From assembly GCA_045561235.1 (NCBI GenBank), contig JBJKYB010000002.1, positions 18,962 through 82,961 on the forward strand: 64,000 nt of DNA. The letters run 5' to 3'. The position numbers were made by a program, and so were the translations under genes. Every line of letters starts with the position of its first letter. The first letter of the stretch is position 1. The stretch comes from Gammaproteobacteria bacterium (lineage in GTDB: Bacteria; Pseudomonadota; Gammaproteobacteria; Poriferisulfidales; GCA-002705445). This document shows, in pieces, positions 8,218-58,974 of the stretch. The notes beneath the pieces are model-generated. The model was not told where the DNA came from. It did no database searches and saw nothing but the letters and a program-made list of their open reading frames with translations.

Positions 8218-9630
8218 ATGAAAGATCATTTAATATTTTTAACTGGAAAGCTAGCGAAGATATCACTTGAGAAAGTTCTATCAGATATTAGCTCCAAAAA
8301 TAAATTCACTTATGAAGTTATGGATATAGGTGTTAATGTTGCTGCTTTGGCAACAATAAATATTATTATTAAAAAAATAAATTTATCAGATGTCACAAAA
8401 GCAACAAAAATTATTATCCCGGGTAGATGCAGAGGTGAAATAAAAGATCTAGAAGCTCATTTTAAGAAAAAATTCATTAGAGGTCCAGAAGAACTAAAAG
8501 ACATTCCAAGCTTTTTAGGTTTACAAGGAAAAGATCTTGATCTAAGTAAATATGATACAAAAATAATTGGAGAAATTACCGAGGCTCCAAATATGTCTAT
8601 TGATGAGATTATTATTCAGGCAAATATTTATAAAGCTGATGGCGCAGATATTATCGATATTGGGTGTTTACCAAGTACAAAGTTTCCACATTTGACCGAA
8701 ACAGTTCAGGAATTAAAAAAACAAAAATTTATGGTTAGTATAGACTCTCTTGATGAAAAAAATTTAATCACAGGAGCTAAAGCTGGTGCAGATTTTTTAC
8801 TAAGCCTTCAAGAAAAATCTATCTGGATAATGGATGAAGTAAATTCTTTACCTGTGATTATTCCAGACTTTCCAAAAGAAGAAAAAAGATTTTACAAGTT
8901 AATTGAAAAATTATTAAAAAATGATAAAGAATTTATTGCTGATTCAATCCTAGAGCCAATAAATTTTGGTTTTACTGATTCCATAGTAAGGTATCATAGA
9001 TTTAGAAAAGAATTTCCGAATGTAGAAATAATGATGGGTATTGGAAATTTAACTGAGCTAACACATGCAGATACAGCTGGAATGAATGCTCTCCTTTTTG
9101 GTATTGCTTCAGAGCTGGAAATTAATTATGCATTATGCACACAGGTAAGTGAACATTGTAATAGGGCCATAATAGAAGGAAATTTTGCTAGAAGAATTAT
9201 GCGTTCCACGAAAACTTATAGTATGCCTCCAAAGGATATTTCTAATAAACTGCTTAGCCTACATGAAAGAAAGCCATTTCCATATTCAACTGAAGAACTT
9301 AAAGAAATGTGGAGTAATGTAAAAGATAAAAATTATAGGATTTATGTAAATCAGGATGGTATACATGTTTTTAATAACAAAAATTTCTATACAGAAAAGG
9401 ATGCTGCAGAGTTTTATCAATATCTTGATATAAAAAATGATGACGGACATGCATATTACCTAGGTATGGAATTAGCAAGAGCTGAAATAGCATTTCAGCT
9501 TGGCAAAAGATACGATCAAGACGAAATACTAAAATGGGGCTGTTCTGTAGAAATATCAGATGATGATATAATGAAATTTAAAACTGCAGGCCACACTATG
9601 AGAAAATTAAAAAAAGAAAAAATGGATTAA
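8218..9630 (+). CDS. dihydropteroate-synthase-like pterin-binding protein, probably tetrahydromethanopterin biosynthesis (MJ0301-type)
   Basis: 470 aa. The central region carries the pterin-binding/DHPS signature (GADIIDIG..PST...) flanked by extra N- and C-terminal domains, as in archaeal/methylotroph H4MPT-linked DHPS-like proteins. It is adjacent to an MfnB-like gene. Confidence 0.55.
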   Translation: MKDHLIFLTGKLAKISLEKVLSDISSKNKFTYEVMDIGVNVAALATINIIIKKINLSDVTKATKIIIPGRCRGEIKDLEAHFKKKFIRGPEELKDIPSFLGLQGKDLDLSKYDTKIIGEITEAPNMSIDEIIIQANIYKADGADIIDIGCLPSTKFPHLTETVQELKKQKFMVSIDSLDEKNLITGAKAGADFLLSLQEKSIWIMDEVNSLPVIIPDFPKEEKRFYKLIEKLLKNDKEFIADSILEPINFGFTDSIVRYHRFRKEFPNVEIMMGIGNLTELTHADTAGMNALLFGIASELEINYALCTQVSEHCNRAIIEGNFARRIMRSTKTYSMPPKDISNKLLSLHERKPFPYSTEELKEMWSNVKDKNYRIYVNQDGIHVFNNKNFYTEKDAAEFYQYLDIKNDDGHAYYLGMELARAEIAFQLGKRYDQDEILKWGCSVEISDDDIMKFKTAGHTMRKLKKEKMD

Positions 9631-9633
9631 ATC

Positions 9634-10203
9634 ATGACCTATGTCAGAGAGACTATAGTTACCACTAAAAATATTGATAACTCTATAAAAGTATCACCAC
9701 TTGGAATTTATATTGAAAATAGTATATTGAAAATAAAACCTTTCAAACCATCAATTTCTCTTGAAAATATCTTAAGAAATAAATCAGGTGTGATAAACTA
9801 TATAGATGATGTAAGAATATTTGCATCATGTATTACAAAAAAAAGTATTAATATTGACTTTGAAAAAGTTAACTTTATTGATTGCTCAAGAATTAATGGT
9901 GCTATATCTCATACAGAATTTGTAGTCGAACATATTGAAGATGATGATAAAAGGCCAACTATAACATGCAAACCTGTTAATGAAGAGGTTCATAAAATAT
10001 TTTATGGGCTAAATAGAGCAAAATCAGCAGTTTTAGAGCTTTGTATTCTCGCATCTAGATTAGGCATAATTGAGGATAAAAAAATTCAAGATGAAATTGA
10101 ATATTTAAAGATCGCAATAGACAAAACAGCTGGTAAAAATGAGCTCGAAGCTTGGACTTGGTTAAATAATTATATAAATACATACAGAGAAAAAATAAAA
10201 TAA
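9634..10203 (+). CDS. hypothetical protein, possibly DUF447-like small protein associated with H4MPT/MFR cofactor gene clusters
   Basis: 189 aa, starting 4 bp after the DHPS-like gene and sharing an ATGA-type junction with the MfnB-like gene. I recognise no strong motif; the assignment is by context and size only. Confidence 0.3.
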   Translation: MTYVRETIVTTKNIDNSIKVSPLGIYIENSILKIKPFKPSISLENILRNKSGVINYIDDVRIFASCITKKSINIDFEKVNFIDCSRINGAISHTEFVVEHIEDDDKRPTITCKPVNEEVHKIFYGLNRAKSAVLELCILASRLGIIEDKKIQDEIEYLKIAIDKTAGKNELEAWTWLNNYINTYREKIK

Positions 10204-10895
10204 TGTTAAAAATACTTGCTAGTATTCAAAATATATCAGAAGCGAAAATTTTAATAAATTCAGATATTGATATTATAGATCTTAAGGATCCATCAAAAGG
10301 CGCTTTGGGTAAATTAAATATTAATGATATTATTAATATAATAAATTTTATTGATAAAAAAAAACTTACAAGTTCTACTATTGGTGATTTACCAAATGAC
10401 AAGAAATTAATTTCTAAAAGTGTAGATGAGTTAAGTATTCTTAATATTGATTTTATTAAAATTGGAGTCTATGAAAGAAGTTATATTAATACAATAGCTG
10501 AAGTTAATTCATGTAAGAAACTTATAGCAGTTTTTTTTGCAGATCTATTCTTGCCTAAAGAAAAAGATTTATTATTCTTAAAAGAATCTGGCTTTTCTGG
10601 TGTAATGATAGATACTTCTAATAAGAAATTAGGAAATCTCTTCGATCATGCGTCTTTCTCTGAAATAAATAGTTTCATATCAAATGCAAAAAAACTTAAT
10701 TTATTGACTGGAATTGCAGGCTCAATTAACGAATCGCATATAAATCAAATTTCAAAAATTAATCCAAACTATATGGGTTTTAGAGGAGCTCTTTGTGAAA
10801 ATAAATTAATTAGAAATTCAACTATATCTGCCAAGAATGTTAAAAATATTATTCATCAAGTTAAAATTTCAAGAGAAATTTCTATGAGCGCTTGA
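10203..10895 (+). CDS. mfnB: MfnB-like (5-formylfuran-3-yl)methyl phosphate synthase family protein (methanofuran/methylofuran biosynthesis)
   Basis: 230 aa. The N-terminus MLKILASIQNISEAKILINSDIDIIDLKDPSKGALGK matches the MJ1099/MfnB family signature (...ADIIDVKNP.EGSLGA). The size also fits. Confidence 0.6.
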   Translation: MLKILASIQNISEAKILINSDIDIIDLKDPSKGALGKLNINDIINIINFIDKKKLTSSTIGDLPNDKKLISKSVDELSILNIDFIKIGVYERSYINTIAEVNSCKKLIAVFFADLFLPKEKDLLFLKESGFSGVMIDTSNKKLGNLFDHASFSEINSFISNAKKLNLLTGIAGSINESHINQISKINPNYMGFRGALCENKLIRNSTISAKNVKNIIHQVKISREISMSA

Positions 10896-48239: not shown

Positions 48240-49430
48240 TTATTCAATAATTTTTGAAACAACTCCAGCACCAACTGTCCTTCCACCTTCACGTATTGCG
48301 AATTTTAGTCCTTGCTCCATTGCCACTGGCGCAATTAACTCAACAGTCATACTAACATTATCTCCAGGCATTACCATTTCTGTTCCAGAGGGAAGTGTTG
48401 CTGCACCTGTGACATCAGTTGTTCTAAAATAAAATTGAGGTCTATATCCATTAAAAAATGGAGTATGTCTTCCACCTTCATCCTTCGATAAAATATAAAC
48501 TTCACACTCATATTTTGTATGAGGTTTAATAGATCCTGGTTTACATAAAACTTGTCCTCTTTCTACTTCTTCTCTTTTTGTTCCTCTAAGAAGCACACCA
48601 ACATTGTCTCCGGCTTCACCTTGGTCAAGAAGCTTTCTAAACATCTCAACTCCAGTACATACAGATTTTTGTGTATCTTTAATTCCGCATATTTCAATTT
48701 CATCGTTTACGTTAATTATGCCTCTTTCGACTCTTCCTGTAACAACCGTACCCCTTCCTGAAATAGAAAAAACATCTTCAACTGGCATTAAGAAGTCACC
48801 GTCAGTAGCTCTCTCTGGCTGTGGAAAAAAGTCATCCATAGCTGCAACTATTTTTTCGATTGATGGTGCGCCAATATCAGATGTATCTCCTTCAAGTGCT
48901 TTCAATGCAGAACCACTTACAAAAGGAATATTATCACCATCGAACTCATAAGATGTTAATAATTCTCTAATTTCCATTTCTACTAACTCAGTTAATTCAG
49001 CGTCATCAACTTGATCAGCTTTGTTTAAATAAACAACAATATTTGGGACCCCAACTTGACGAGCTAAAAGAATATGCTCTTTTGTTTGAGGCATTGCTCC
49101 ATCCGCAGCACTTACCACTAAGATTGCTCCATCCATTTGCGCAGCACCCGTAATCATATTTTTTACGTAGTCAGCGTGTCCTGGGCAATCAACATGTGCG
49201 TAATGACGATTATCAGATTCGTATTCAACATGAGCAGTCGCTATAGTAATACCTCTTTCTCTTTCTTCAGGAGCATTATCAATATCACCATAATCCTTAA
49301 ATTCACCACCCATTTTTTCTGCCATAACTTTTGTAATAGCAGCAGTTAATGTAGTCTTTCCATGGTCAACATGACCAATTGTTCCCACATTCATATGTGG
49401 TTTATTTCTTTCAAATTTTGCTTTTGACAT
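48240..49430 (-). CDS. tuf: elongation factor Tu
   Basis: 396 aa; [21 protein letters not shown]; the only tuf copy in the window. Confidence 0.98.
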
Positions 49431-49467
49431 CTCTATCGCCCTCCGCGGCCTATAGTATTTTTATTCA

Positions 49468-49543
<76 letters not shown>

Positions 49544-49595
49544 GTGATTGTATACTGTTTTTAACAGGATTGCTCTAAATTTTTGCTAATTTTAT

Positions 49596-49669
<74 letters not shown>

Positions 49670-49780
49670 ATTAAAAAATTAGCTTAAAAATCACACAAAA
49701 CCCTAATAAAACAGCAAATTAAACCCAAATATCTCATAATTTTAATATTTTAACAGACATATTAAAATTATAGTAATTAA

Positions 49781-49865
49781 TGGTGGAGGGGGGAGGATTC
49801 GAACCTCCGAAGGCATAGCCAGCAGATTTACAGTCTGCCCTCGTTGACCGCTTGAGTACCCCTCC
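49781..49865 (-). tRNA. tyrU: tRNA-Tyr (anticodon GUA)
   Basis: 85 nt with long variable arm, anticodon loop CUGUAAA, 3' CCA encoded. The ORF 49742..49942 is an artefact overlapping it. Confidence 0.9.
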
Positions 49866-50007
49866 GTCAAGGCAAGAATTTTGAAGTACAGGTTGATAGT
49901 AGTCAACAAAAATATTGCTAAAACTTTTAAAATATCAATCAATTGTGTTTAAGCACTCTTGAAAAGCTAGTTTTGGAATTATGTATTAATATGCTAGGAT
50001 AATTTGT

Positions 50008-50406
50008 ATGAGCGATAATATGTTTACTAATGCTTCAAAATATTTCGATGTAGTTGAGAAAATAATACTGGTTATATTGTTATTTGCGACACTTACAGCA
50101 ATAGGTCAGGAAATCTCAAAAGTTATAGCTCTAGGCAAAGTAAATCTTGCTGACATTCTATTATTGTTTATTTTTCTTGAAGTCATTGGGATGATTAAAG
50201 AATATTACGTAACAAATAGAATAGCAATTTCACATCCAATCTTTATTGCAATTACAGCTTTAGCACGATTAATTATTTTACAACGAAAAGATTTTGATCC
50301 AGTAATCTTAATATATGAATCAGGTGCTATTTTAATACTTGCTTTAGCAATACTCGCTTTAAGGGCTAGAAAAAACGCTTTCTTTAGACCAGATAGACCA
50401 GATTAA
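50008..50406 (+). CDS. psiE: PsiE-family inner-membrane protein (phosphate-starvation-inducible protein E-like)
   Basis: 132 aa, 4 TM. Colinear similarity to E. coli PsiE (ADVLF../ADILLLF..; [34 protein letters not shown] vs HPIFIAITALARLIILQRKDFDPVILIYESGAILIL). Confidence 0.7.
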   Translation: MSDNMFTNASKYFDVVEKIILVILLFATLTAIGQEISKVIALGKVNLADILLLFIFLEVIGMIKEYYVTNRIAISHPIFIAITALARLIILQRKDFDPVILIYESGAILILALAILALRARKNAFFRPDRPD

Positions 50407-50445
50407 AAAGATATTGATTTTTTTCTAAAAAAAATAATTTAAAAG

Positions 50446-50919
50446 TTAATAATATCTATTTGGTAATGAGGAGTGGTGCATAACGATTTTCAAATCACCA
50501 TTTGACAGTCTTTTATAGACCCAGCTTTTATCTACTTTTACAATATCGCCGTTCTTGTTACTTAAAGTCACCCATCCCATCCATATTGCAATATCATTTT
50601 CTATAAAGATATCTGAAGTTTTGGAGTCAAATTTACTCCACGAGTTAATTCCAAAGCCATTATCCATTGGATATTTTGAATTATTTCCAACGAAATAAGA
50701 TAGAGCTCCCTCCAAACTCGAGCGAAATGTTTGACTACTCCCACTCATGGTCGGTTTAAATAAAATTGGACCGAGTTCAAAAGCATATAATTCCTGTAAA
50801 ATTTTCTTTGCAATTATAGTAGCTTCTTCAATACCTTTTTCATCATAAGTCTTAGAAATTAAAATTAAGCCATCGCCCCAAGCATTGCGTGCTTTATTCA
50901 TATCTTTTTTATTAATCAT
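50446..50919 (-). CDS. hypothetical protein, possibly NTF2-like (SnoaL/DUF4440-type) fold
   Basis: 157 aa soluble protein ending in a ...HHSS-like motif; no catalytic motif recognised. It is co-oriented 96 bp downstream of fprA. Confidence 0.3.
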   Translation of the reverse strand: MINKKDMNKARNAWGDGLILISKTYDEKGIEEATIIAKKILQELYAFELGPILFKPTMSGSSQTFRSSLEGALSYFVGNNSKYPMDNGFGINSWSKFDSKTSDIFIENDIAIWMGWVTLSNKNGDIVKVDKSWVYKRLSNGDLKIVMHHSSLPNRYY

Positions 50920-51015
50920 TATGCAATTACTCTTCTATTATTTTGTAGCTTTGCTTAGCTATATTAAATCTGTGAGACATTTTCATAAAAAGTTTTTGCA
51001 TGTTTTGAGATATTT

Positions 51016-52437
51016 TTAAGTTAGTAGACCAAGCATTTCTTCAGTATATGTAAACTTCTCTCTTGGCTTACCTTTTGGTTTTCCATTTTCAACTTCATGT
51101 TTATCAATAACTTCCCATTCAATAAAATTGATGTATCTTACTTTTTTTGCATTAAGAATTTCGTGTATTTTTTTACTACCAAGCTTTTCTTTTTTATCAT
51201 CTAATTTTTCTAAATCTGTCATAAGTTCTTCAATAGTTTCATTCGCGCAGGCTTTGTTCGTTCCAATAATTCCACTTGGGCCCCTTTTGATCCATCCAGC
51301 TGTATAAAGTTGTGGAACGACAACCTTAGTTTCATGATCTTCGGTAACCCTTCCTTTTTCATTTGGAATAACGCCCCAAGCATCATGAAAAGGTACTCCT
51401 TCTAAAGCTACTCCTCTATAACCAATACTTCTAAATAAAACGCCCGCCTTTAGTTCTTCAAATTCGCCAGTACCTCTTGCCGACTGTTTAAATGGCTCGC
51501 CTGATAGAGCGTTCTTTTCAAAAACAACTGTTTCTAACTTTTTTTTACCTTTTAACTCTACAGGACTTCTCAAAAATTGTATGTGACATTTACGAGGTTT
51601 CACATATGGTTTTGTCCATGGAAAACTTCTTGCCTTATGAGGACTTTTAGGCTCAGCATAACTTGCAAACAATTCGTATATTTTTTTTGCTGATCTACCT
51701 TTTCTATCAGCTAGTTCCTCTTCACTAGATTTATTTAAAATTGCTTCATCAGGATCAACAAAAGTATCACATTCTTGTAACTCACCAAATTCTTTCAGTT
51801 CTTTCGAAGTCATTGCCCCTTGTGCGGGACCTCTTCTTCCAACAATAAATATATTCTTTACTTTACTTGTTTCTAAAACATCAAGCGCATGTTGTGAAAT
51901 GTCAGTATATTTTAATTCATCAACTGTCTTTGAAAGTATTCTGGCAACATCAGCAGCAACATTACCTTGACCAATAATTACAGCATTTTCATGAGATAGA
52001 TCGAATTCCCTATCTCTATATTCTGGATGTCCGTTATACCATGCAACAAATTCCGTAGCTGTATGACTTCCTTTTAAATCCTCACCAGGTATGCCAAGTT
52101 TTCTATCAGTTTCCGCGCCCATAGTTATAATGACAGCATGGTGAGTTTCTTTTAGAGCATCTACAGTTATATCTTTACCAACACTTACATTTCCAAAGTA
52201 ATTAAATTCTTCGGGTTCTGCCATTACTGCAAATTTCTCAATACTTTTTTTAATTAAAGCATGATCAGGTGCAACTCCGGTTCTCACTAGCCCATAGGGC
52301 GCGCATAACTTTTCAAGTAAATTGACTTCTACTTTTAATTCCGAATTAATTAAAGCATCTGCCGCATAAAATCCGCTTGGGCCAGCACCAACAATTGCAA
52401 CTTTCAAGGGATTATCTGAACTTCCTAATTTGCTCAT
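51016..52437 (-). CDS. fprA: FprA/adrenodoxin-reductase-type NADPH:ferredoxin oxidoreductase (glutamate synthase small-subunit-like FAD/NAD(P) fold)
   Basis: 473 aa. The N-terminal FAD dinucleotide motif VAIVGAGPSGFYAA and a second NADP Rossmann motif (VIIGQGNVAADVARIL) give the architecture of Mycobacterium FprA / adrenodoxin reductase. It starts 21 bp after fdxA. Confidence 0.8.
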   Translation of the reverse strand: MSKLGSSDNPLKVAIVGAGPSGFYAADALINSELKVEVNLLEKLCAPYGLVRTGVAPDHALIKKSIEKFAVMAEPEEFNYFGNVSVGKDITVDALKETHHAVIITMGAETDRKLGIPGEDLKGSHTATEFVAWYNGHPEYRDREFDLSHENAVIIGQGNVAADVARILSKTVDELKYTDISQHALDVLETSKVKNIFIVGRRGPAQGAMTSKELKEFGELQECDTFVDPDEAILNKSSEEELADRKGRSAKKIYELFASYAEPKSPHKARSFPWTKPYVKPRKCHIQFLRSPVELKGKKKLETVVFEKNALSGEPFKQSARGTGEFEELKAGVLFRSIGYRGVALEGVPFHDAWGVIPNEKGRVTEDHETKVVVPQLYTAGWIKRGPSGIIGTNKACANETIEELMTDLEKLDDKKEKLGSKKIHEILNAKKVRYINFIEWEVIDKHEVENGKPKGKPREKFTYTEEMLGLLT

Positions 52438-52458
52438 TTTTTCACTCTTTATAAAAAA

Positions 52459-52764
52459 TTATAAACCTAATGCTTCTCTTTTGTCTTCTGCACCTTCAAG
52501 AGGTTCAAGAGTTTCAGTAATGTTTGGAGTTTCTTGCGATCTTTCTTCATTTATATCTACCCAATGTTCTTGACCATCAGGAAGATCATCCTCTTCAAAG
52601 ATTGCTTCTACTGGACATTCCGGAACACACGCGCTGCAATCAATACATACATCTGGATTTATATATAACATTTCGTCATCAACGTGAAATGCTTCAACAG
52701 GACAAACCGAAACACAATCGGTAAATCTACATCCTCTACAATTATCTGTCACTACTGTTGTCAT
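52459..52764 (-). CDS. fdxA: 7Fe ferredoxin ([3Fe-4S][4Fe-4S], Azotobacter FdI type)
   Basis: 101 aa; MTTVVTDNCRGCRFTDCVSVCPVEAFH...CIDCSACVPECPVEAIF, near-colinear with A. vinelandii FdI. Confidence 0.93.
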   Translation of the reverse strand: MTTVVTDNCRGCRFTDCVSVCPVEAFHVDDEMLYINPDVCIDCSACVPECPVEAIFEEDDLPDGQEHWVDINEERSQETPNITETLEPLEGAEDKREALGL

Positions 52765-52802
52765 AAAATAAATACTCCTAAAAACTTTACTTAATTATAT
52801 AC

Positions 52803-53609
52803 CTACGCAGAATAAACTAAAAGTTCTCCGCGATTCATTTCAATAGCATCTCCACTCCACCTATGGAATGAACCATTGATAATTTTATCCTCAATATTAA
52901 TTTTTGTATTTTCTTTTAAATACTTAAAGAAAATTTTTAAATATGTTGGGTTATATAAACAATCATATGAAAAAGTTGGTAATATTTCTAAATTGTCTAT
53001 ACATATAATAGAACCCCTTTTCATTCCTGCTCCAGTTCTGATACCCATTTCACCAAATATTAAAATGGTACCTGATACCATATTAACGCCCGCAAAATCT
53101 CCACAATTTCCACCAACTACCATAGTAGCGCCTGCCATAGCATGACCTAATTCATTTTTGACATTACCCTCAATAATAATTTCTCCCCCGGAAACACCTT
53201 TTGACGCACCTCTATATGCACTTGCAACGCAATGTCCAGCGTTTCCAGAAATATGAATTCTTCCCCCTGACATTTCTGGTGCAATCCAATCACCAGCATT
53301 ACCATTTACGTTTATAGATCCACCAGACATTGCTGAGCCTAAATGGGCACCCACATCTCCTTCGATATGCATCTCCCCTTCAGACATATTTGCTCCCAAA
53401 TATTTTATTCGGTTCATGTCTCCTTCGACTTGCAATAAATCTAATTTACTCTTTGAGACAGAAAAGAAATCAGCTATATTCACTTCTCTATTACCATGAA
53501 AAATTTTAGTTTTTTCAATTTCTTTTGCCTTTAAATTATTAATAACTCCAGGAGTTATACTCTCAGCTTCTAAAGGAACATCTGGTTTTGTGTGTAATTT
53601 TAATTTCAT
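52803..53609 (-). CDS. fhcC: formylmethanofuran dehydrogenase subunit C-like protein (FwdC/FhcC; GltB C-terminal GXGXG beta-helix domain)
   Basis: 268 aa of repeated G.GNAG.....M.GG.I.I.G motifs, typical of FwdC and glutamate synthase alpha-subunit domain 4. Confidence 0.85.
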   Translation of the reverse strand: MKLKLHTKPDVPLEAESITPGVINNLKAKEIEKTKIFHGNREVNIADFFSVSKSKLDLLQVEGDMNRIKYLGANMSEGEMHIEGDVGAHLGSAMSGGSINVNGNAGDWIAPEMSGGRIHISGNAGHCVASAYRGASKGVSGGEIIIEGNVKNELGHAMAGATMVVGGNCGDFAGVNMVSGTILIFGEMGIRTGAGMKRGSIICIDNLEILPTFSYDCLYNPTYLKIFFKYLKENTKINIEDKIINGSFHRWSGDAIEMNRGELLVYSA

Positions 53610-53623
53610 CGTACTAGTTTGAT

Positions 53624-54538
53624 TTAATCTACTAAATCCTTTAAATAAAATTTATATTTACCAAGTTTTCCGCCAAAATTTCCAGCAGTTATTTGAATAA
53701 CTCCTTCTTTGGCTGCAGCATGCATTCCTACTTTCATAGCTTTTGCAACTGCATTCTCATCTGCACCGTCTACGACAATTTCGTAACAAGTATGAACGCT
53801 TTCAGGCACAGCCGAATCTTTAACTACTCCTTTTAAAGTAGGACAATAAATATGGTTTGTCGAGGCAACTAGATCTTTGTATTTTGACCCAACTTTACTA
53901 CCACTTCTAACTACTCCTTTAGGAAATGGCATTATAACATTTTCAACTCTCTTCATAACTTTTACAGCATCGTAACAAGCATCTAGACATTCTTTTACAT
54001 TATCACCAAGAATATAAAAATTTCCACCGCCAACAGATTCTCTTACACCAAAGTTTTCGTGTATTATAAATTCTCCGTCAAAAACTGGAATTCTCCAGTA
54101 TCTTTTATTTTGAATTTTTTTCCCTATTTGATGACCATCACCAAAGTATCTTAATGCTCCACCAACATTTACAGTGTCTTCTGAATCGTAACCACTAAAA
54201 CATGCCGTTGTTGGACATGTCATTACACATTGTCCTATTCTTTCAATTAATCTTTTACCAAGACTCGCTTTATCCATTGTAAAAACTAAAATACTATAAC
54301 CTGGTCTGCCATCAGGGGTTTCCTCGGGAGTAAGCTTCATATCGATACCTGCTTCGCATTTGCAACCTATTACAGAAGTTGCCATTCCAGTCATGGCTCT
54401 TGCAGCACCTTCAGCCCAATAATCATTTTCTGCAGTGATAATTACTTTTGCCGACCACATTGAAAAAGCTTCTGCATATGTATCAACAATTTCTGTATTA
54501 TTAATTTTCATAAATGCTGTTCTTTTTCCTTGTTTCAA
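53624..54538 (-). CDS. fhcD: formylmethanofuran--tetrahydromethanopterin N-formyltransferase (Ftr/FhcD)
   Basis: The N-terminus ...MKINNTEIVDTYAEAFSMWSAKVIITAENDYWAEGAARAMTGMATSVIGCKCEAGID is colinear with archaeal Ftr (MEINGVEIEDTFAEAF...). The likely true start is the Met at about 54511 (295 aa), which avoids a 38-bp overlap with fhcA. Confidence 0.85.
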   Translation of the reverse strand: MKQGKRTAFMKINNTEIVDTYAEAFSMWSAKVIITAENDYWAEGAARAMTGMATSVIGCKCEAGIDMKLTPEETPDGRPGYSILVFTMDKASLGKRLIERIGQCVMTCPTTACFSGYDSEDTVNVGGALRYFGDGHQIGKKIQNKRYWRIPVFDGEFIIHENFGVRESVGGGNFYILGDNVKECLDACYDAVKVMKRVENVIMPFPKGVVRSGSKVGSKYKDLVASTNHIYCPTLKGVVKDSAVPESVHTCYEIVVDGADENAVAKAMKVGMHAAAKEGVIQITAGNFGGKLGKYKFYLKDLVD

Positions 54539-56168
54539 TTACTTTACCTGTGCCATGTAAATATTCATCCTGAACTGCATAATTACTATAGGAAACAGAA
54601 TAAAAATCATCAAAGAAAGGTTTTATAACTTTTTCTATTTCTCTATCAAAATCAGGTGCCACTCGTAAAACTTTTTTGTCAGTATAGTCACTGACAAATT
54701 CATGATCAGCGATCAACAATTGCCCAGCCTTCATAACGTATCTTGGAGCATTAAACATTTCTTCTTTATCCTCAAGCATGTCATATATTGTTATGTCTGC
54801 GTCCGCACCAACACCTAGATGACCTTTATCTTTTAATCCTAAACACTTTGCAGGGCCTGCCCTTGTAATGATACAAATTTCATTTAATGTATATTCCCTT
54901 TTCAACTCTCCCAAAATCGTACTATTCATTGCTTTTTGATTAACACTTTTCATTGCTACTTTTCTAAATTCATAATCCATTAATAATTTAATTACCAATG
55001 GATAATTTGCAAAAGAACCGCCATTTGGATGATCGGTAGACAAAACTATTCTCCAAGGATCTTTTGATAACAAGAATATTTCTAAACCAATAGCCCATTG
55101 AAGTGCATGAGTGTAAATCATACCCTGGTAATCGAAAGGTAAAATTCCACAGCCACTCTCACATTCAGTATCAGCATTCACCCATTTTTCTTTTTTATAA
55201 CCTCTGAGTAAATATGTTAAAGGCGCGTCAGCAGTCATAAACATTGCTTTACCAAACATTACTTGCCCAACATCGCAGGTTATATTTTGGTGGTCGTTTA
55301 CATAATCAGTAATTTCTTTTGAGGCTGATTTTGGTGGCTTGCCAAGTTCACCCGCGTAACTATTGAATTGAATATGAGCAACATGCAGTCTTCTATCCCC
55401 AGCAGTCTTCATACTTTCTAAGGTTGTATCAAAGTTTCCACTATGACCAAGATTATTACAATGAATATGCGGAGGATGAGGTAATCCTAGCTCATGTACA
55501 GCATCAATAAATGCTTCGATCACTTTTCTTGGTGCAATATCTGTCGCCTTACTATCTTCGTCGATATCTTTTACATTCAGATTTTTGTGACCTTTCCAGG
55601 GTTCATCTCCTCCTGGATTTACTAATTTCACAGTGTACGCTTTTGTTGCATTTAACCACCATGCAACTGCCTCTTTGAACTCAGCAAAACGCCCCTCTGC
55701 AATTAAACTTTGTAAAAAAAGATTATTTCCAAGTAAAACATAAAAACCGTTGTCAATGATTGGCGTGTCGTACATTTCTTCCAGCGCATGCCTTGCAGTC
55801 AATGGCGGGACAGCTGCTTCCATTGCAGTTGTGTATCCTAAAGTTGCATATCTATATCCAGTTGCGAAAGTTGAAGGAACAATTCCTCCAGTACCAGATT
55901 GTGTGTATGGGGTTTTAAAGTGCGGATCTAATCTATGATCCTCGGGCATTAATTTTCTTGCTAGATTAACTTTTGGTCCAGTAATATGACAATGAATATC
56001 TACACCGCCAGGCATAACTGCCATTCCTTTTGCATCGATAACCTTTGCCGCTTTGGAAACCTTTGAGACAATTTTTCCATCCTTTACGAGGATGTCACAA
56101 ACTTTTCCTTCGATTTCATTTGTAGGATCAAAAACTATGCCGTTTATGATACGAAATTCATTACTCAT
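54501..56168 (-). CDS. fhcA: formylmethanofuran dehydrogenase subunit A-like metal-dependent amidohydrolase (FwdA/FhcA)
   Basis: 555 aa amidohydrolase-superfamily protein (GGVDIHCH metal-binding motif near the N-terminus) with FwdA length and operon context. Confidence 0.85.
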   Translation of the reverse strand: MSNEFRIINGIVFDPTNEIEGKVCDILVKDGKIVSKVSKAAKVIDAKGMAVMPGGVDIHCHITGPKVNLARKLMPEDHRLDPHFKTPYTQSGTGGIVPSTFATGYRYATLGYTTAMEAAVPPLTARHALEEMYDTPIIDNGFYVLLGNNLFLQSLIAEGRFAEFKEAVAWWLNATKAYTVKLVNPGGDEPWKGHKNLNVKDIDEDSKATDIAPRKVIEAFIDAVHELGLPHPPHIHCNNLGHSGNFDTTLESMKTAGDRRLHVAHIQFNSYAGELGKPPKSASKEITDYVNDHQNITCDVGQVMFGKAMFMTADAPLTYLLRGYKKEKWVNADTECESGCGILPFDYQGMIYTHALQWAIGLEIFLLSKDPWRIVLSTDHPNGGSFANYPLVIKLLMDYEFRKVAMKSVNQKAMNSTILGELKREYTLNEICIITRAGPAKCLGLKDKGHLGVGADADITIYDMLEDKEEMFNAPRYVMKAGQLLIADHEFVSDYTDKKVLRVAPDFDREIEKVIKPFFDDFYSVSYSNYAVQDEYLHGTGKVIETRKKNSIYEN

Positions 56169-56220
56169 AATTAATTCAAACCTTTTTTAATTTTTATATT
56201 TATTAATTAGCTCAATGTAC

Positions 56221-57591
56221 TTACATATATTTTTTAGTTGCATAAGGTCTATTTGCTTTTTTAGACAACTCATTAACTTTTTTTCTAAGTTTTGTTAGCA
56301 CCTCTAGATCACTAGGAAATGGTGAATCAAATGCAGGTCTTAAACTAATTGGAACATCATCCATTCTATAAACTGTTCCACCGGTGTTAATTCCATAAGT
56401 ACTGGTTTGAATTGAAATATGCGCAGCTTCACTTGTCGGTGTGTTTTTTGTATCTATTGATATTAATTTACATTTGTCACTTGTAATATGATCAATTGCA
56501 GGCTTTGGAAAATTCGCAACTGGATCACTTGCAATTATTAAAGCTGCATCAGCTTCTTTTCTTGTTAAAGTATCAACAGTTGTAAATTCACCAGGATTAA
56601 ACCTTGGGTGCCCTCTGCTAAAATTAACTCCAAACGGATACCCAGTTTGCCAAGAAACAACGTTATCGGCACCTGTTACGTTACCATGTCCTCTTGCAGG
56701 TTTTGCTACAAAATGCGTAAATTCATTTAGATCTGTTGCTAAGGCCATTAATGCTCCAGAGTTAAAGTGTCTTCCTCTAGTCATTGTTAATCCCATTCCA
56801 AAAAATATAACTCCATAAGTACAGTTTTTCATTTTATTAAAAAGATCTTCAGCAACTTCTTTTTCGATACCACAAATTTCTTTACAATTATCTGGAATAG
56901 GAACACCTTTACATGCAGCCCTGAGTATCCATAAAAACTCAAAATCTTTTCCAGGTTTTACTTGTAAAAATATATCAGCTACTCCTGCTGTTTTTGTATG
57001 TCTCACATCACAAATTACAACTGTACGATCATCTTTTCCATTTGGAGTAAACATACCTTCTGGTGTAACAGCATATCTTGCGAAATGTCTTGGGTGCGCT
57101 TCAGCTGGATTACCACCCCAATACATTACAAAGTCAGCTCTATTTTTTACTTCTCCTAAAGTCATGCTGGGTTCACCAACACCTTGGAAAGCCATGCCGG
57201 ATGGACCGTGACATACAGAAGTTGTTGTATCAATAGTTCCACCACAATCGTCCATGATTGGAGCACATTGTCTTTGAGCTTCACATATTGTGTCACTCAT
57301 ACCATATAATATTGGAAACTTTGCATCCATTAACACTTTAGCCGCTTCATCAATTGCATCATCTAAAGGAACTTCTTTTCCATCTATTCTTGCTATTGGC
57401 TTATCTTCTATAACATGATTTAAAAACCAAGCCTTTCCAAGTATGCAAGCATCTTTAGCTTTTGTGATAACTTTTTTGTCCATATCAACAGTCAAAGTAA
57501 TATCATCACAACAGCATCCACAAAAAGTACAAGTTGCGTTCTCTACAATTTTCTCATTTACAATTTTATTATCTTTACTTACTGCACTCAT
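56221..57591 (-). CDS. fhcB: formylmethanofuran dehydrogenase subunit B-like molybdopterin-oxidoreductase-fold protein (FwdB/FhcB)
   Basis: 456 aa. An N-terminal Cys cluster (CTFCGCCCDD...C) resembles the MopB [4Fe-4S] motif. The internal TTTSVCHGPSG resembles the Cys/SeCys active-site motif (VUHGPS of FDH-H). Confidence 0.8.
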   Translation of the reverse strand: MSAVSKDNKIVNEKIVENATCTFCGCCCDDITLTVDMDKKVITKAKDACILGKAWFLNHVIEDKPIARIDGKEVPLDDAIDEAAKVLMDAKFPILYGMSDTICEAQRQCAPIMDDCGGTIDTTTSVCHGPSGMAFQGVGEPSMTLGEVKNRADFVMYWGGNPAEAHPRHFARYAVTPEGMFTPNGKDDRTVVICDVRHTKTAGVADIFLQVKPGKDFEFLWILRAACKGVPIPDNCKEICGIEKEVAEDLFNKMKNCTYGVIFFGMGLTMTRGRHFNSGALMALATDLNEFTHFVAKPARGHGNVTGADNVVSWQTGYPFGVNFSRGHPRFNPGEFTTVDTLTRKEADAALIIASDPVANFPKPAIDHITSDKCKLISIDTKNTPTSEAAHISIQTSTYGINTGGTVYRMDDVPISLRPAFDSPFPSDLEVLTKLRKKVNELSKKANRPYATKKYM

Positions 57592-57620
57592 AATATCTCC
57601 TTGATTGTCTCCTTAACTCA

Positions 57621-58013
57621 TTAAGCAACTTCAGTTTTAGGCGGTAAAGCAGTTTTCTTTTTTACGCCTTTTTTGACAAACTCTATATCTATTGTCATTC
57701 CTTTTGAGGCCGGCATGCCCGATGCACATGTTTCACCATCAAACAAACAACTTGATGGCGGGCCATATGGAATGAATGCATAACCTACAGGAATTTTTCC
57801 TTCTCTTAGAACTTTTAGTTGAACTTCAGTTTCACCGATGTGGTTACTAATTTTGACTATGTCAGCTGTTTCTAGTCCTAGCTCAGCTGCATCTTCGAAA
57901 CTAATTTCAAGCGTAGTTGTGACTCTAATGTACTCTTCCTTAAGCTTACCCTTATTCAGCCCTACTCCTTGTTTGGCGGAGCGGCCTGGTATAAGTATTA
58001 GTTGTCCTTTCAT
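57621..58013 (-). CDS. formylmethanofuran dehydrogenase subunit D-like protein (molybdopterin dinucleotide-binding / MopB C-terminal beta-barrel domain)
   Basis: 130 aa; colinear with archaeal FwdD (G.......G....V.I......G...V...V.......F.P.GP........D..T...GMP.SKG......E). It is the first gene of the operon, 29 bp upstream of fhcB. Confidence 0.65.
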   Translation of the reverse strand: MKGQLILIPGRSAKQGVGLNKGKLKEEYIRVTTTLEISFEDAAELGLETADIVKISNHIGETEVQLKVLREGKIPVGYAFIPYGPPSSCLFDGETCASGMPASKGMTIDIEFVKKGVKKKTALPPKTEVA

Positions 58014-58155
58014 TGCATCATTAAGTTTTTCCTAAGCCTCTTTTAAATACTCAAATATTGTTTACTACCTATATTAACGTATGCTTATTAAGATAACCTA
58101 TTATGGGTAATAAAACAACTATTTTATATTACTATAGTAGTATTTAAGCAGTATT

Positions 58156-58231
58156 TGGAGCCGCCTGTCAGAATCGAACTGACTACCTGCTGATTACAAA
58201 ACAACTGCTCTACCAAATGAGCTAAGGCGGC
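58156..58231 (-). tRNA. tRNA-Thr (anticodon UGU)
   Basis: 76 nt hand-folded cloverleaf with perfect 7-bp acceptor stem (GCCGCCT/AGGCGGC), D-arm GCTC-ATTTGGTA-GAGC, anticodon loop UUUGUAA, T-arm GTCAG-TTCGATT-CTGAC, CCA encoded. Confidence 0.85.
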
Positions 58232-58236
58232 AATTT

Positions 58237-58974
58237 TTACGCTTCAAATACTAAAATTCCTTCAAAAAGAAGAGATTCTACATGTATTATTGGGTAGTTA
58301 CAATTATCCAAAACGCTTTTAGAATTTCCTCCAGTTACATAAATTTCTGGAGTGACACCCCTTCCTTTAATCATCTTATCCAAAGTATTATTTATTGAAT
58401 GATATGCAGAAATTGTAGAACCATTTTCAATGCTAGATCTTGTGTTAGATGAAAAAATTCCTTCAATTAATTCTTCATTTGAAAAATCAAAATCTAGCAT
58501 TTCAAAAAATACGCTATCAATGAGTTTTTTACTAGGGAGAATAATACCTCCTATATGATTTTTGTTGAAGTCCAAATAGTCAATTGTTGTTGCTGTTCCT
58601 GCATCAATAACAATAATATCTTTATTTGTTTTTACAGATGCTCCTACTAAGTTTAAAGCTCTATCTACTCCTAAATTATTTAAATTATTTTTATATGCTA
58701 AGGAAATATATTGATTACAATCTTCCGAATTAATAAATTTAATAATTTCATTAATATCACTGGGCAGCTCGTTCATAATAAGTTGTAAATCAGCTTCCTT
58801 AAGAACATTACAACAAACTATTTTCTCGCAATTAAATTTTTTAACAATGGTGGCTAAATTATTCAGCTCAGATATATTTTCATAATTATTTTTTTGAACC
58901 GAAATAATGTTATTTTCTTTAATAAGAGCTAATTTGTAATTAGTATGTCCAAAATCAATTGCGCAAAAATTCAT
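58237..58974 (-). CDS. coaX: type III pantothenate kinase (Bvg accessory factor family)
   Basis: 245 aa; N-terminal AIDFGHTNYKLAL and internal VIDAGTATTID motifs of CoaX; downstream of birA as in many beta-proteobacteria. Confidence 0.85.
   Translation of the reverse strand: MNFCAIDFGHTNYKLALIKENNIISVQKNNYENISELNNLATIVKKFNCEKIVCCNVLKEADLQLIMNELPSDINEIIKFINSEDCNQYISLAYKNNLNNLGVDRALNLVGASVKTNKDIIVIDAGTATTIDYLDFNKNHIGGIILPSKKLIDSVFFEMLDFDFSNEELIEGIFSSNTRSSIENGSTISAYHSINNTLDKMIKGRGVTPEIYVTGGNSKSVLDNCNYPIIHVESLLFEGILVFEA

Follow-up and report, generated by a model that had tools for sequence, protein, structure and literature searches.

A 7Fe ferredoxin and an NADPH:ferredoxin reductase linked to a redox-type formylmethanofuran dehydrogenase operon suggest an NADP+-reducing module in marine gammaproteobacteria

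A stretch of 64,000 nucleotides from a gammaproteobacterial genome (GenBank assembly GCA_045561235.1, contig JBJKYB010000002.1, positions 18,962 to 82,961), referred to here as the window, carries a cluster of seven genes in the 5′ to 3′ order fwdD-fwdB-fwdA-ftr-fwdC-fdxA-fprA, all on the minus strand (Table 1). The first five encode subunits of a formylmethanofuran dehydrogenase (Fwd) and the formyltransferase Ftr, which exchanges the formyl group between methanofuran and tetrahydromethanopterin (H4MPT); the last two encode a 7Fe ferredoxin, FdxA, and a flavin adenine dinucleotide (FAD) enzyme, FprA. A preliminary description of this DNA had reported the fdxA and fprA open reading frames (ORFs), and both were found exactly where it placed them, on the minus strand. 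Its assignment of the two products to the Azotobacter-type 7Fe ferredoxins and to the FprA/adrenodoxin-reductase family was also borne out, as detailed below. Its label 'fhc' for the upstream genes, including 'fhcC' for fwdC, was wrong: the set is a redox-type Fwd complex.

The type of the complex was assessed from the sequences of its subunits. In the hydrolytic FhcB of Methylorubrum extorquens, the residues corresponding to Cys118, His119 and Arg288 of Fwd and the N-terminal [4Fe-4S] domain are lost, and FwdD is absent (Hemmann et al., PMC6926001). The FwdB of the window matches Methanothermobacter wolfeii FwdB (PDB 5T5I_B) over its full length with 375 bits, as against 45 bits for M. extorquens FhcB (6S6Y_B). 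Cys127-His128 lies in the string SVCHGPS, which aligns to the same string in 5T5I_B (M. wolfeii Cys118, the tungsten/molybdenum (W/Mo) ligand, and His119), Arg300 in PARGHGNVTG aligns to the catalytic Arg288 of M. wolfeii in PMRGHYNVTG, and an N-terminal [4Fe-4S] motif of the form CxxCxxxC...C is present as Cys21/24/28/49. These catalytic and Fe-S residues are invariant in the relatives. FwdD matches Pfam PF01568 with 40.6 bits (cutoff 26.8) and the NCBIfam FwdD model with 55.7 bits, short of the cutoff (175). Of the six PDB matches of FwdD, five are FwdD chains (2KI8, 8RJA_D, 9SFI_S, 5T5I_D and 7BKB_J), and the weakest, 9SW6_K, is deposited as Fmd subunit C. FwdA scores 685 bits against TIGR03121 (cutoff 393) and 462-468 bits against archaeal FwdA chains, compared with 339 bits against M. 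extorquens FhcA. Ftr exceeds the cutoffs of both NF002554 (430 bits) and TIGR03119 (412 bits), and FwdC scores 251 bits against TIGR03122 (cutoff 131), with a Pfam GXGXG match in addition. The start of ftr is likely at 54511, which gives a protein of 295 aa as called on identical metagenome contigs (L001, 7927-8814).

An assignment of the complex to Fhc was ruled out by the Cys-His, Arg and [4Fe-4S] residues of FwdB and by the presence of FwdD. The ftr gene sits between fwdA and fwdC, giving the B-A-D-C order that is also found in Fhc, and in gene organisation the module is, as read from its sequence, a hybrid of Fwd-type subunits with an Fhc-like integrated formyltransferase. The complex should oxidise or reduce its substrate at a putative W/Mo-pterin site and, because FwdB has dehydrogenase features and is accompanied by FwdD, would need an electron acceptor. 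Genes for the polyferredoxins FwdF and FwdG were not found between 49400 and 58400 in the ORF list or by family searches. FdxA is the sole Fe-S carrier encoded in the cluster, and is therefore the only candidate electron carrier there. A search for a Moco/Tuco riboswitch, which could indicate Mo or W, returned only tRNAs (Rfam scan of 49400-58600, E up to 1).

FdxA aligns to Azotobacter vinelandii 7Fe ferredoxin I (FdI) over residues 4-94 (E=2e-29; PDB 2FD2/1AXQ, E about 1e-29). The pattern CxxCxxxxCxxxCP...CxxCxxCxxxCP is present residue for residue with FdI (C9/C12/C17/C21-P and C40/C43/C46/C50-P), and the cluster cysteines C9, C17, C21, C40, C43, C46 and C50 are in register. A C-terminal extension matches DUF3470 (PF11953) with 24.5 bits (cutoff 23.2), and there is a weak similarity to FwdG (5T5I_G, 28 bits, E=1.5e-5). 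FprA aligns to Mycobacterium tuberculosis FprA (1LQT) over residues 10-472 (334 bits, E=1e-98) and end to end to bovine adrenodoxin reductase (1CJC; 302 bits, E=6e-89). It has an N-terminal FAD motif GAGPSG of the GxGxxG type (VGAGPSG, residues 16-22) and a GRRGP motif whose Arg201-Arg202 align at the NADP 2′-phosphate site and are invariant across eight relatives; we take this pair to be the NADP(H)-site Arg199/Arg200 of M. tuberculosis FprA. The FprA-type family prefers NADPH (PMC6208970). A plant-type ferredoxin-NADP reductase or E. coli Fpr was considered for this gene and rejected, since only Pyr_redox_2 and NAD_binding_8 match and FAD_binding_6 and NAD_binding_1 do not. By these matches fdxA and fprA are real genes and not chance ORFs.

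The spacing given in the preliminary description holds, with 38 bp between fwdC and fdxA (52765-52802) and 21 bp between fdxA and fprA (52438-52458), both on the minus strand. Each gap contains a ribosome-binding site and nothing else: an AGGAG 10 nt before the ATG of fdxA, and the purine-rich AAGAGTGA before fprA. A consensus scan found no terminator-like site on the minus strand across 49400-58400. Promoter-like matches in such a scan were at chance level (34 found, 34.9 expected from shuffles), although one 10/12 match at 52487-52458 ends at the fdxA-fprA junction; since the matches are no commoner than in shuffled sequence, the scan is uninformative on co-transcription beyond the absence of a terminator. 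These signals are compatible with a single transcript for the module but are no proof of one. In relatives the median gaps are 68 bp (fwdC-fdxA) and 54 bp (fdxA-fprA).

To follow the linkage in relatives, genomes were scanned with an FprA alignment, keeping one genome per species, and the module genes were mapped by tblastn. This gave 80 loci, of which 71 had enough upstream DNA to be informative. In high-GC loci only genes mapped by homology were counted, as naive ORF calls gave spurious ORFs on the opposite strand. The full ordered set fwdD-B-A-ftr-fwdC-fdxA-fprA was present in 67 of the 71 species-level genomes, with FprA proteins 55-95% identical; one of the other four lacked only a detectable fwdD and three had no adjacent fwd genes. 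fdxA adjoins fprA in all 78 loci that have the upstream DNA. In the reverse direction, metagenomes were scanned with a FwdB alignment, and wherever FwdB was at least 66% identical to that of the window, fdxA and fprA were both present in 22 of 23 informative loci. Loss of the linkage in close relatives, on which the preliminary description had made its proposal depend, was thus not seen. The pairwise distances of FprA and of the Fwd subunits are correlated (r=0.80-0.90).

The surroundings of the module vary. It lies within a tRNA operon in the window and behind radA in L008, is divergent from the H4MPT genes mch, an mtdB-like gene and an ATP-grasp gene in L010 and L013, and is followed in relatives by fhc, fds or unrelated genes; in four rearranged loci (L121, L136, L140 and L147) its genes are still close together. 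Many marine metagenome contigs, from TARA and other sources, encode an identical FprA in an unchanged gene order. Among named genomes the nearest are single-cell or metagenome-assembled genomes of marine origin labelled 'Thiothrix sp.' or Gammaproteobacteria, and several carriers bear the labels of sulfur-oxidiser lineages (Thiotrichaceae, Ca. Porisulfidus, Acidiferrobacterales). No cultured carrier was found among the best 80 genome matches, all of which are metagenome-assembled or single-cell genomes.

In many related loci a second, paralogous set lies directly after fprA. This set is Fhc-like: it lacks FwdD, the sites of the Cys-His and the Arg read SDGAIRN and AGNDGG in its FhcB, and it is followed by genes for the NAD-dependent formate dehydrogenase fdsGBA and not by fdx/fpr. 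The two sets form an internal control: formate dehydrogenase genes go with the non-redox set, and genes for a ferredoxin and a ferredoxin:NADP reductase go with the redox one. The FhcB paralogues at L010:11694-12965 and L013:11530-12828 retain the N-terminal CxxCxxxC...C [4Fe-4S] motif despite the lost Cys-His and Arg, whereas in M. extorquens FhcB this domain is wholly absent.

Other Fwd lineages have other NAD(P)H-linked partners. In some clusters that lack fdxA-fprA, a single protein of 720-760 aa (P0121-P0202) joins FwdD to an entire CysJ-type NADPH diflavin reductase. The cysJ model TIGR01931 matches with 688-704 bits, over its cutoff, and PDB 6EFV with 436 bits. The fusion gene (L151, L169, L170 and L184) is divergent from fwdB-A-ftr-fwdC. 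This architecture is common to more than 80 protein clusters, the named sources being Methylococcales, Methylococcaceae, Crenotrichaceae, Methylohalobius, or more broadly Gammaproteobacteria or Pseudomonadota, and it carries the database label 'assimilatory sulfite reductase flavoprotein'. The fusion provides direct genomic evidence for electron exchange between bacterial Fwd enzymes and NADP(H). In a high-GC Fwd lineage, also without fdxA-fprA, a 1183-aa GltD/PyrK-like flavoprotein resembling an NfnAB fusion is encoded directly after fwdC in convergent orientation, and is a candidate for a third type of NAD(P)-linked Fwd partner.

Table 1. Positions of the features discussed. Unprefixed positions refer to the window; other positions carry the locus handle of the contig.
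Feature	Position	Strand	Description
fwdD	57621-58013	minus	small molybdopterin-dinucleotide-binding 'fourth domain' subunit; first gene of the operon
fwdB	56221-57591	minus	catalytic W/Mo-pterin subunit, redox-competent type
fwdA	54501-56168	minus	amidohydrolase subunit, formyl-methanofuran forming/cleaving
ftr (fhcD)	53624-54538	minus	formylmethanofuran:H4MPT formyltransferase
fwdC	52803-53609	minus	beta-helix GXGXG subunit
fdxA	52459-52764	minus	101 aa; 7Fe ([3Fe-4S]+[4Fe-4S]) Azotobacter FdI-type ferredoxin
fprA	51016-52437	minus	473 aa; FAD-dependent NADPH:ferredoxin oxidoreductase, FprA/adrenodoxin-reductase family
Carbonic-anhydrase-like gene (MICAH homologue)	50446-50919	minus	96 bp downstream of fprA
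psiE	50008-50406	plus	convergent
tRNA-Thr(tgt)	58156-58231		upstream of fwdD
tRNA-Tyr, tRNA-Gly, tRNA-Thr, then tufB	from 49865 downwards		
DUF6513/pterin-binding protein, DUF447 protein and MfnB (4-(hydroxymethyl)-2-furancarboxaldehyde phosphate synthase) genes	8218-10895	plus	Pfam matches; adjacent genes
FwdD-CysJ fusion	L151:7511-9715	minus	
FwdD-CysJ fusion	L170:2753-4981	minus	
FwdD-CysJ fusion	L169:1559-3751	minus	
FwdD-CysJ fusion	L184:8001-10172		
NfnAB-like flavoprotein	L155:11395-14946	minus	directly after fwdC, convergent
NfnAB-like flavoprotein	L167:14875-18426	minus	directly after fwdC, convergent
NfnAB-like flavoprotein	L168		directly after fwdC, convergent
Phage fwdB	L100:5170-6516		
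Phage fwdB	L104:1067-2365		
Phage fwdB	L098, L101-L103, L105		
Phage fwdB	L174-L183		IMG/VR

In textbooks, the last enzyme of the bacterial H4MPT pathway is Fhc, a non-redox hydrolase that releases formate. The M. extorquens FhcABCD complex (6S6Y; PMC6926001) shares with the module the B-A-D(ftr)-C order and the same place in the H4MPT formaldehyde-oxidation pathway, but it releases formate and its FhcB is a scaffold, whereas the B subunit of the window retains redox features. In FwdABCDFG of M. wolfeii (5T5I) the fwdB, fwdA, fwdC and fwdD genes are likewise separate and the residues of the catalytic core are the same; the window differs in having, instead of FwdF/FwdG, a 7Fe ferredoxin and an FAD-dependent NADPH:ferredoxin reductase, in placing ftr within the operon, and in its aerobic bacterial host and expected oxidative direction. 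The F420-reducing Fwd/Fmd of the archaeal ethane oxidiser Ca. Ethanoperedens thermophilum also combines an oxidative core with a dedicated reductase of a higher-potential cofactor, which exerts a thermodynamic pull (PMC11493965; PMC11656701); there the acceptor is F420, reached through an electronically connected F420 reductase, and in the window it would be NADP+, reached through FdxA and FprA. M. tuberculosis FprA with its 7Fe/3Fe ferredoxins and bovine adrenodoxin reductase with adrenodoxin belong to the same flavoenzyme family and also have a small ferredoxin partner, but they deliver NADPH electrons to P450s, while the pair in the window lies in a C1-oxidation operon and is proposed to pass electrons from ferredoxin to NADP+. 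FdsABG, the soluble NAD+-dependent Mo-formate dehydrogenase that follows Fhc in methylotrophs, also takes the last C1 step to CO2 and reduces a pyridine nucleotide, and its genes lie beside the module in many related loci; it uses free formate and reaches NAD+ through NuoE/F-like subunits, whereas the module would bypass free formate and yield NADPH.

Homologues of fwdD were stated to be absent from Proteobacteria (Chistoserdova, PMC5020050). A 2024 survey of the electron modules of formylmethanofuran dehydrogenases lists polyferredoxins, Hdr supercomplexes and an F420 reductase, with no NAD(P)-linked bacterial form (PMC11656701), and a survey of the superfamily notes bacterial FwdB homologues without discussing their partners (PMC10100899). 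In the searchable literature, which does not extend to subscription-only papers, no account was found of a bacterial Fwd linked to FdxA/FprA or to CysJ.

We consider it likely that the seven genes form one module, an NADP+-reducing formylmethanofuran dehydrogenase system that would oxidise formyl-H4MPT to CO2 in an aerobic marine gammaproteobacterium. The gene identities, catalytic residues and conserved linkage are shown by the sequences, whereas co-transcription, the passage of electrons from one partner to the next and its direction are inferred. In this scheme Ftr would move the formyl group from formyl-H4MPT to methanofuran, the formyl-methanofuran would be hydrolysed by FwdA within the complex, and the formate would be oxidised to CO2 at the W/Mo-pterin site of FwdB (Cys127). 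Two electrons would then pass through the N-terminal [4Fe-4S] cluster of FwdB to FdxA, in place of the archaeal FwdG/FwdF polyferredoxins, and FprA would oxidise FdxA and reduce NADP+. The net reaction would be the conversion of formyl-H4MPT to CO2 and NADPH, with no free formate and no separate formate dehydrogenase.

The [3Fe-4S] cluster of Azotobacter-type 7Fe ferredoxins lies near -420 mV, and the NADP+/NADPH couple at -320 mV. The couple of CO2 plus methanofuran with formyl-methanofuran lies at about -530 mV (PMC11656701). By analogy with the characterised ferredoxins, every step of the path from FwdB through FdxA and FprA to NADP+ would be downhill, for a total of about -40 kJ/mol. The oxidative direction is favoured because electron flow is downhill toward NADP+, the reverse is uphill, and no bifurcating module is present. 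The proposal in the preliminary description that the pair forms the physiological electron acceptor chain of the complex stands in part, in view of the conserved linkage, the dehydrogenase-like FwdB with its FwdD, and the NAD(P)H-linked modules of the sister lineages. Its further suggestion that the pair may provide low-potential electrons for CO2 reduction is implausible with NADPH as the donor, given about -530 mV (PMC11656701) against about -320 mV.

Several observations weigh against a dedicated oxidative chain. The predicted W/Mo-pterin, Fe-S enzyme would have to work in a cell of the oxic surface ocean. The best family of FdxA is NCBIfam NF045490 (FdxA_Protbact), at 117.3 bits and under the equivalog cutoff of 135; FdxA shares fold and motif with these housekeeping proteins but is a divergent, probably specialised, paralogue. 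In many relatives fdxA and fprA are 100-400 bp apart, which leaves room for separate promoters. The pair is missing from all 10 metagenome loci with FwdB less than 66% identical to that of the window and cannot be a universal partner of Fwd; by these scans the linkage defines a large subclade of bacterial Fwd clusters and not all of them. Two loci (L143 and L153) have fdxA but no fprA. The three of the 71 genomes in which the pair has no adjacent fwd cluster are L080, L084 and L086, and L012 is a further case. In L012 (9607-15876) and L080 NAD-formate dehydrogenase genes follow immediately after the pair, in L084 the pair is flanked by H4MPT genes and by an fhc cluster, and in L086 there is an fds cluster on the opposite strand, some 5 kb downstream of the pair; none of the four has fwd genes nearby. 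These loci may reflect recent loss or relocation of fwd, or a second C1-related partner for the pair.

On another reading FdxA would partner FwdB, but FprA would not chiefly pass electrons on to NADP+. It would use NADPH to poise or re-reduce FdxA, perhaps for reductive activation or repair of an oxygen-sensitive W/Mo-Fe-S enzyme; or the FdxA reduced by Fwd would mostly supply other ferredoxin-dependent enzymes, FprA being a buffer valve. In favour, the pair persists beside fds or fhc in loci without fwd (L012, L080, L084), the characterised FprA/adrenodoxin-reductase enzymes work from NADPH to ferredoxin (PMC6208970), and phages of the clade carry extra fwdB near Fe-S assembly or ferredoxin genes, a hint that FwdB turnover or damage is limiting. 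We nevertheless regard this explanation as unlikely: an enzyme turning over at -530 mV needs a stoichiometric sink, of which the module encodes no other, and the FwdD-CysJ fusions of the sister lineages, by connecting Fwd directly to an NADP(H) site, speak for catalytic coupling over occasional activation. That the pair is a general housekeeping couple for Fe-S or redox homeostasis or for P450-type supply, functionally unrelated to fwd, appears very unlikely. It is true that Proteobacteria commonly have a 7Fe FdxA as a housekeeping ferredoxin, that promiscuity in vitro is documented for FprA-type reductases (PMC6208970), and that three to four genomes have the pair with no adjacent fwd cluster; but the linkage survives sequence divergence over the 55-95% identity range, several contexts and rearrangements, FprA distances are congruent with those of the Fwd subunits, FdxA falls below the equivalog cutoff of the housekeeping family, and no P450, isc or suf genes lie nearby. 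Moreover, the non-redox Fhc paralogue is never accompanied by such a pair, and the other redox Fwd lineages have different NAD(P)H modules.

A reversed chain, in which NADPH would drive CO2 reduction to formyl-methanofuran through FprA, FdxA and Fwd for C1 assimilation or CO2 fixation, is given only a very slight chance. Fwd enzymes are reversible and the archaeal ones work reductively, the carbonic-anhydrase-like gene that follows fprA in the clade of the window could supply CO2, and several carriers bear the sulfur-oxidiser labels mentioned above. This direction would, however, be uphill by about +40 kJ/mol per two electrons (-530 mV, PMC11656701, against -320 mV), no bifurcating module of the Hdr, Nfn or Etf type is found within the seven-gene module, and the surroundings are oxidative, with the formaldehyde-oxidation genes mch and mtdB-like and with Fhc plus NAD-formate dehydrogenase.

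If the NADP+-reducing oxidation of formyl-H4MPT is correct, the module would represent a fourth type of electron module for a CO2-converting formylmethanofuran dehydrogenase and a formate-free, NADPH-yielding last step of C1 oxidation in abundant marine bacteria. It would also offer a simple soluble NADP-coupled system for CO2 and a formyl carrier, which is of interest for biocatalysis. We see an even chance that a wider reading holds, in which a bona fide W/Mo formylmethanofuran dehydrogenase was re-plumbed to NADP+ at least twice independently, in trans through FdxA and FprA and in cis through the FwdD-CysJ fusion, to convert formyl-methanofuran to CO2 and NADPH, with the phage-borne fwdB as an auxiliary metabolic gene. 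With the same even chance, its scope would be aerobic Gammaproteobacteria from streamlined ocean plankton to sponge symbionts, and methanotrophs by the other module, in parallel to or instead of the route from Fhc through formate to formate dehydrogenase. Annotation is a trap here, as Fwd and Fhc subunits are named alike and the FwdD-CysJ fusions pass as sulfite reductase flavoproteins.

A stand-alone fwdB with all catalytic residues is present in contigs of T4-like marine myoviruses, and ten IMG/VR contigs carry the gene. The phage proteins are 86-90% identical to FwdB of the window over the full alignment, and 87-92% in the best tblastn segment. In L100 the gene lies between the small and large terminase genes and adjoins a 2Fe-2S ferredoxin gene, and in L104 its neighbours include genes whose ORF sequences, on inspection, resemble IscA and IscU. 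A FwdB homologue was absent from the INPHARED cultured phage genomes, the phage copies coming from metagenomes and IMG/VR only. The main text of a survey covering 24 viral methane-metabolism genes mentions fwdF and not fwdB. The phage fwdB appears to be an unreported auxiliary metabolic gene, and its presence would fit with FwdB being of value to the hosts and perhaps limited by turnover.

About 40 kb from the fwd operon the window carries adjacent genes for MfnB, a DUF447 protein and a DUF6513/pterin-binding protein, and the organism can thus be predicted to make the methanofuran and H4MPT cofactors. The carbonic-anhydrase-like gene behind fprA (50446-50919), whose product is a homologue of the metal-independent carbonic anhydrase MICAH, scores 170 bits against NF047901, below the cutoff of 350, and PF27546 is annotated on identical contigs. 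A MICAH gene follows fprA only in the clade of the window itself (L014, L016) and not in other clades; its product could be an accessory that hydrates the CO2 formed by Fwd. On several contigs with identical FprA, two extra genes lie between the MICAH gene and psiE (L001:12077-13761), encoding a 296-aa protein with an IAT_beta/intimin-type beta domain and a 264-aa protein; both are absent in the window (50406-50446) and in L005, a difference at the strain level.

The fwd-fdxA-fprA-MICAH-psiE genes form an island of roughly 8 kb (window 49468-58231) between tRNA-Thr(tgt) and tRNA-Tyr/Gly/Thr-tufB, downstream of birA-coaX. The flanking tRNA genes are presumably those that are contiguous in the classical gammaproteobacterial thrU-tyrU-glyT-thrT-tufB operon arrangement, as in E. 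coli. Direct repeats of the kind left as integration scars were looked for on both sides of the island, and none were found. The G+C content of the island is 0.35-0.36, compared with 0.23-0.31 in most of the stretches of the window that lack ribosomal genes.

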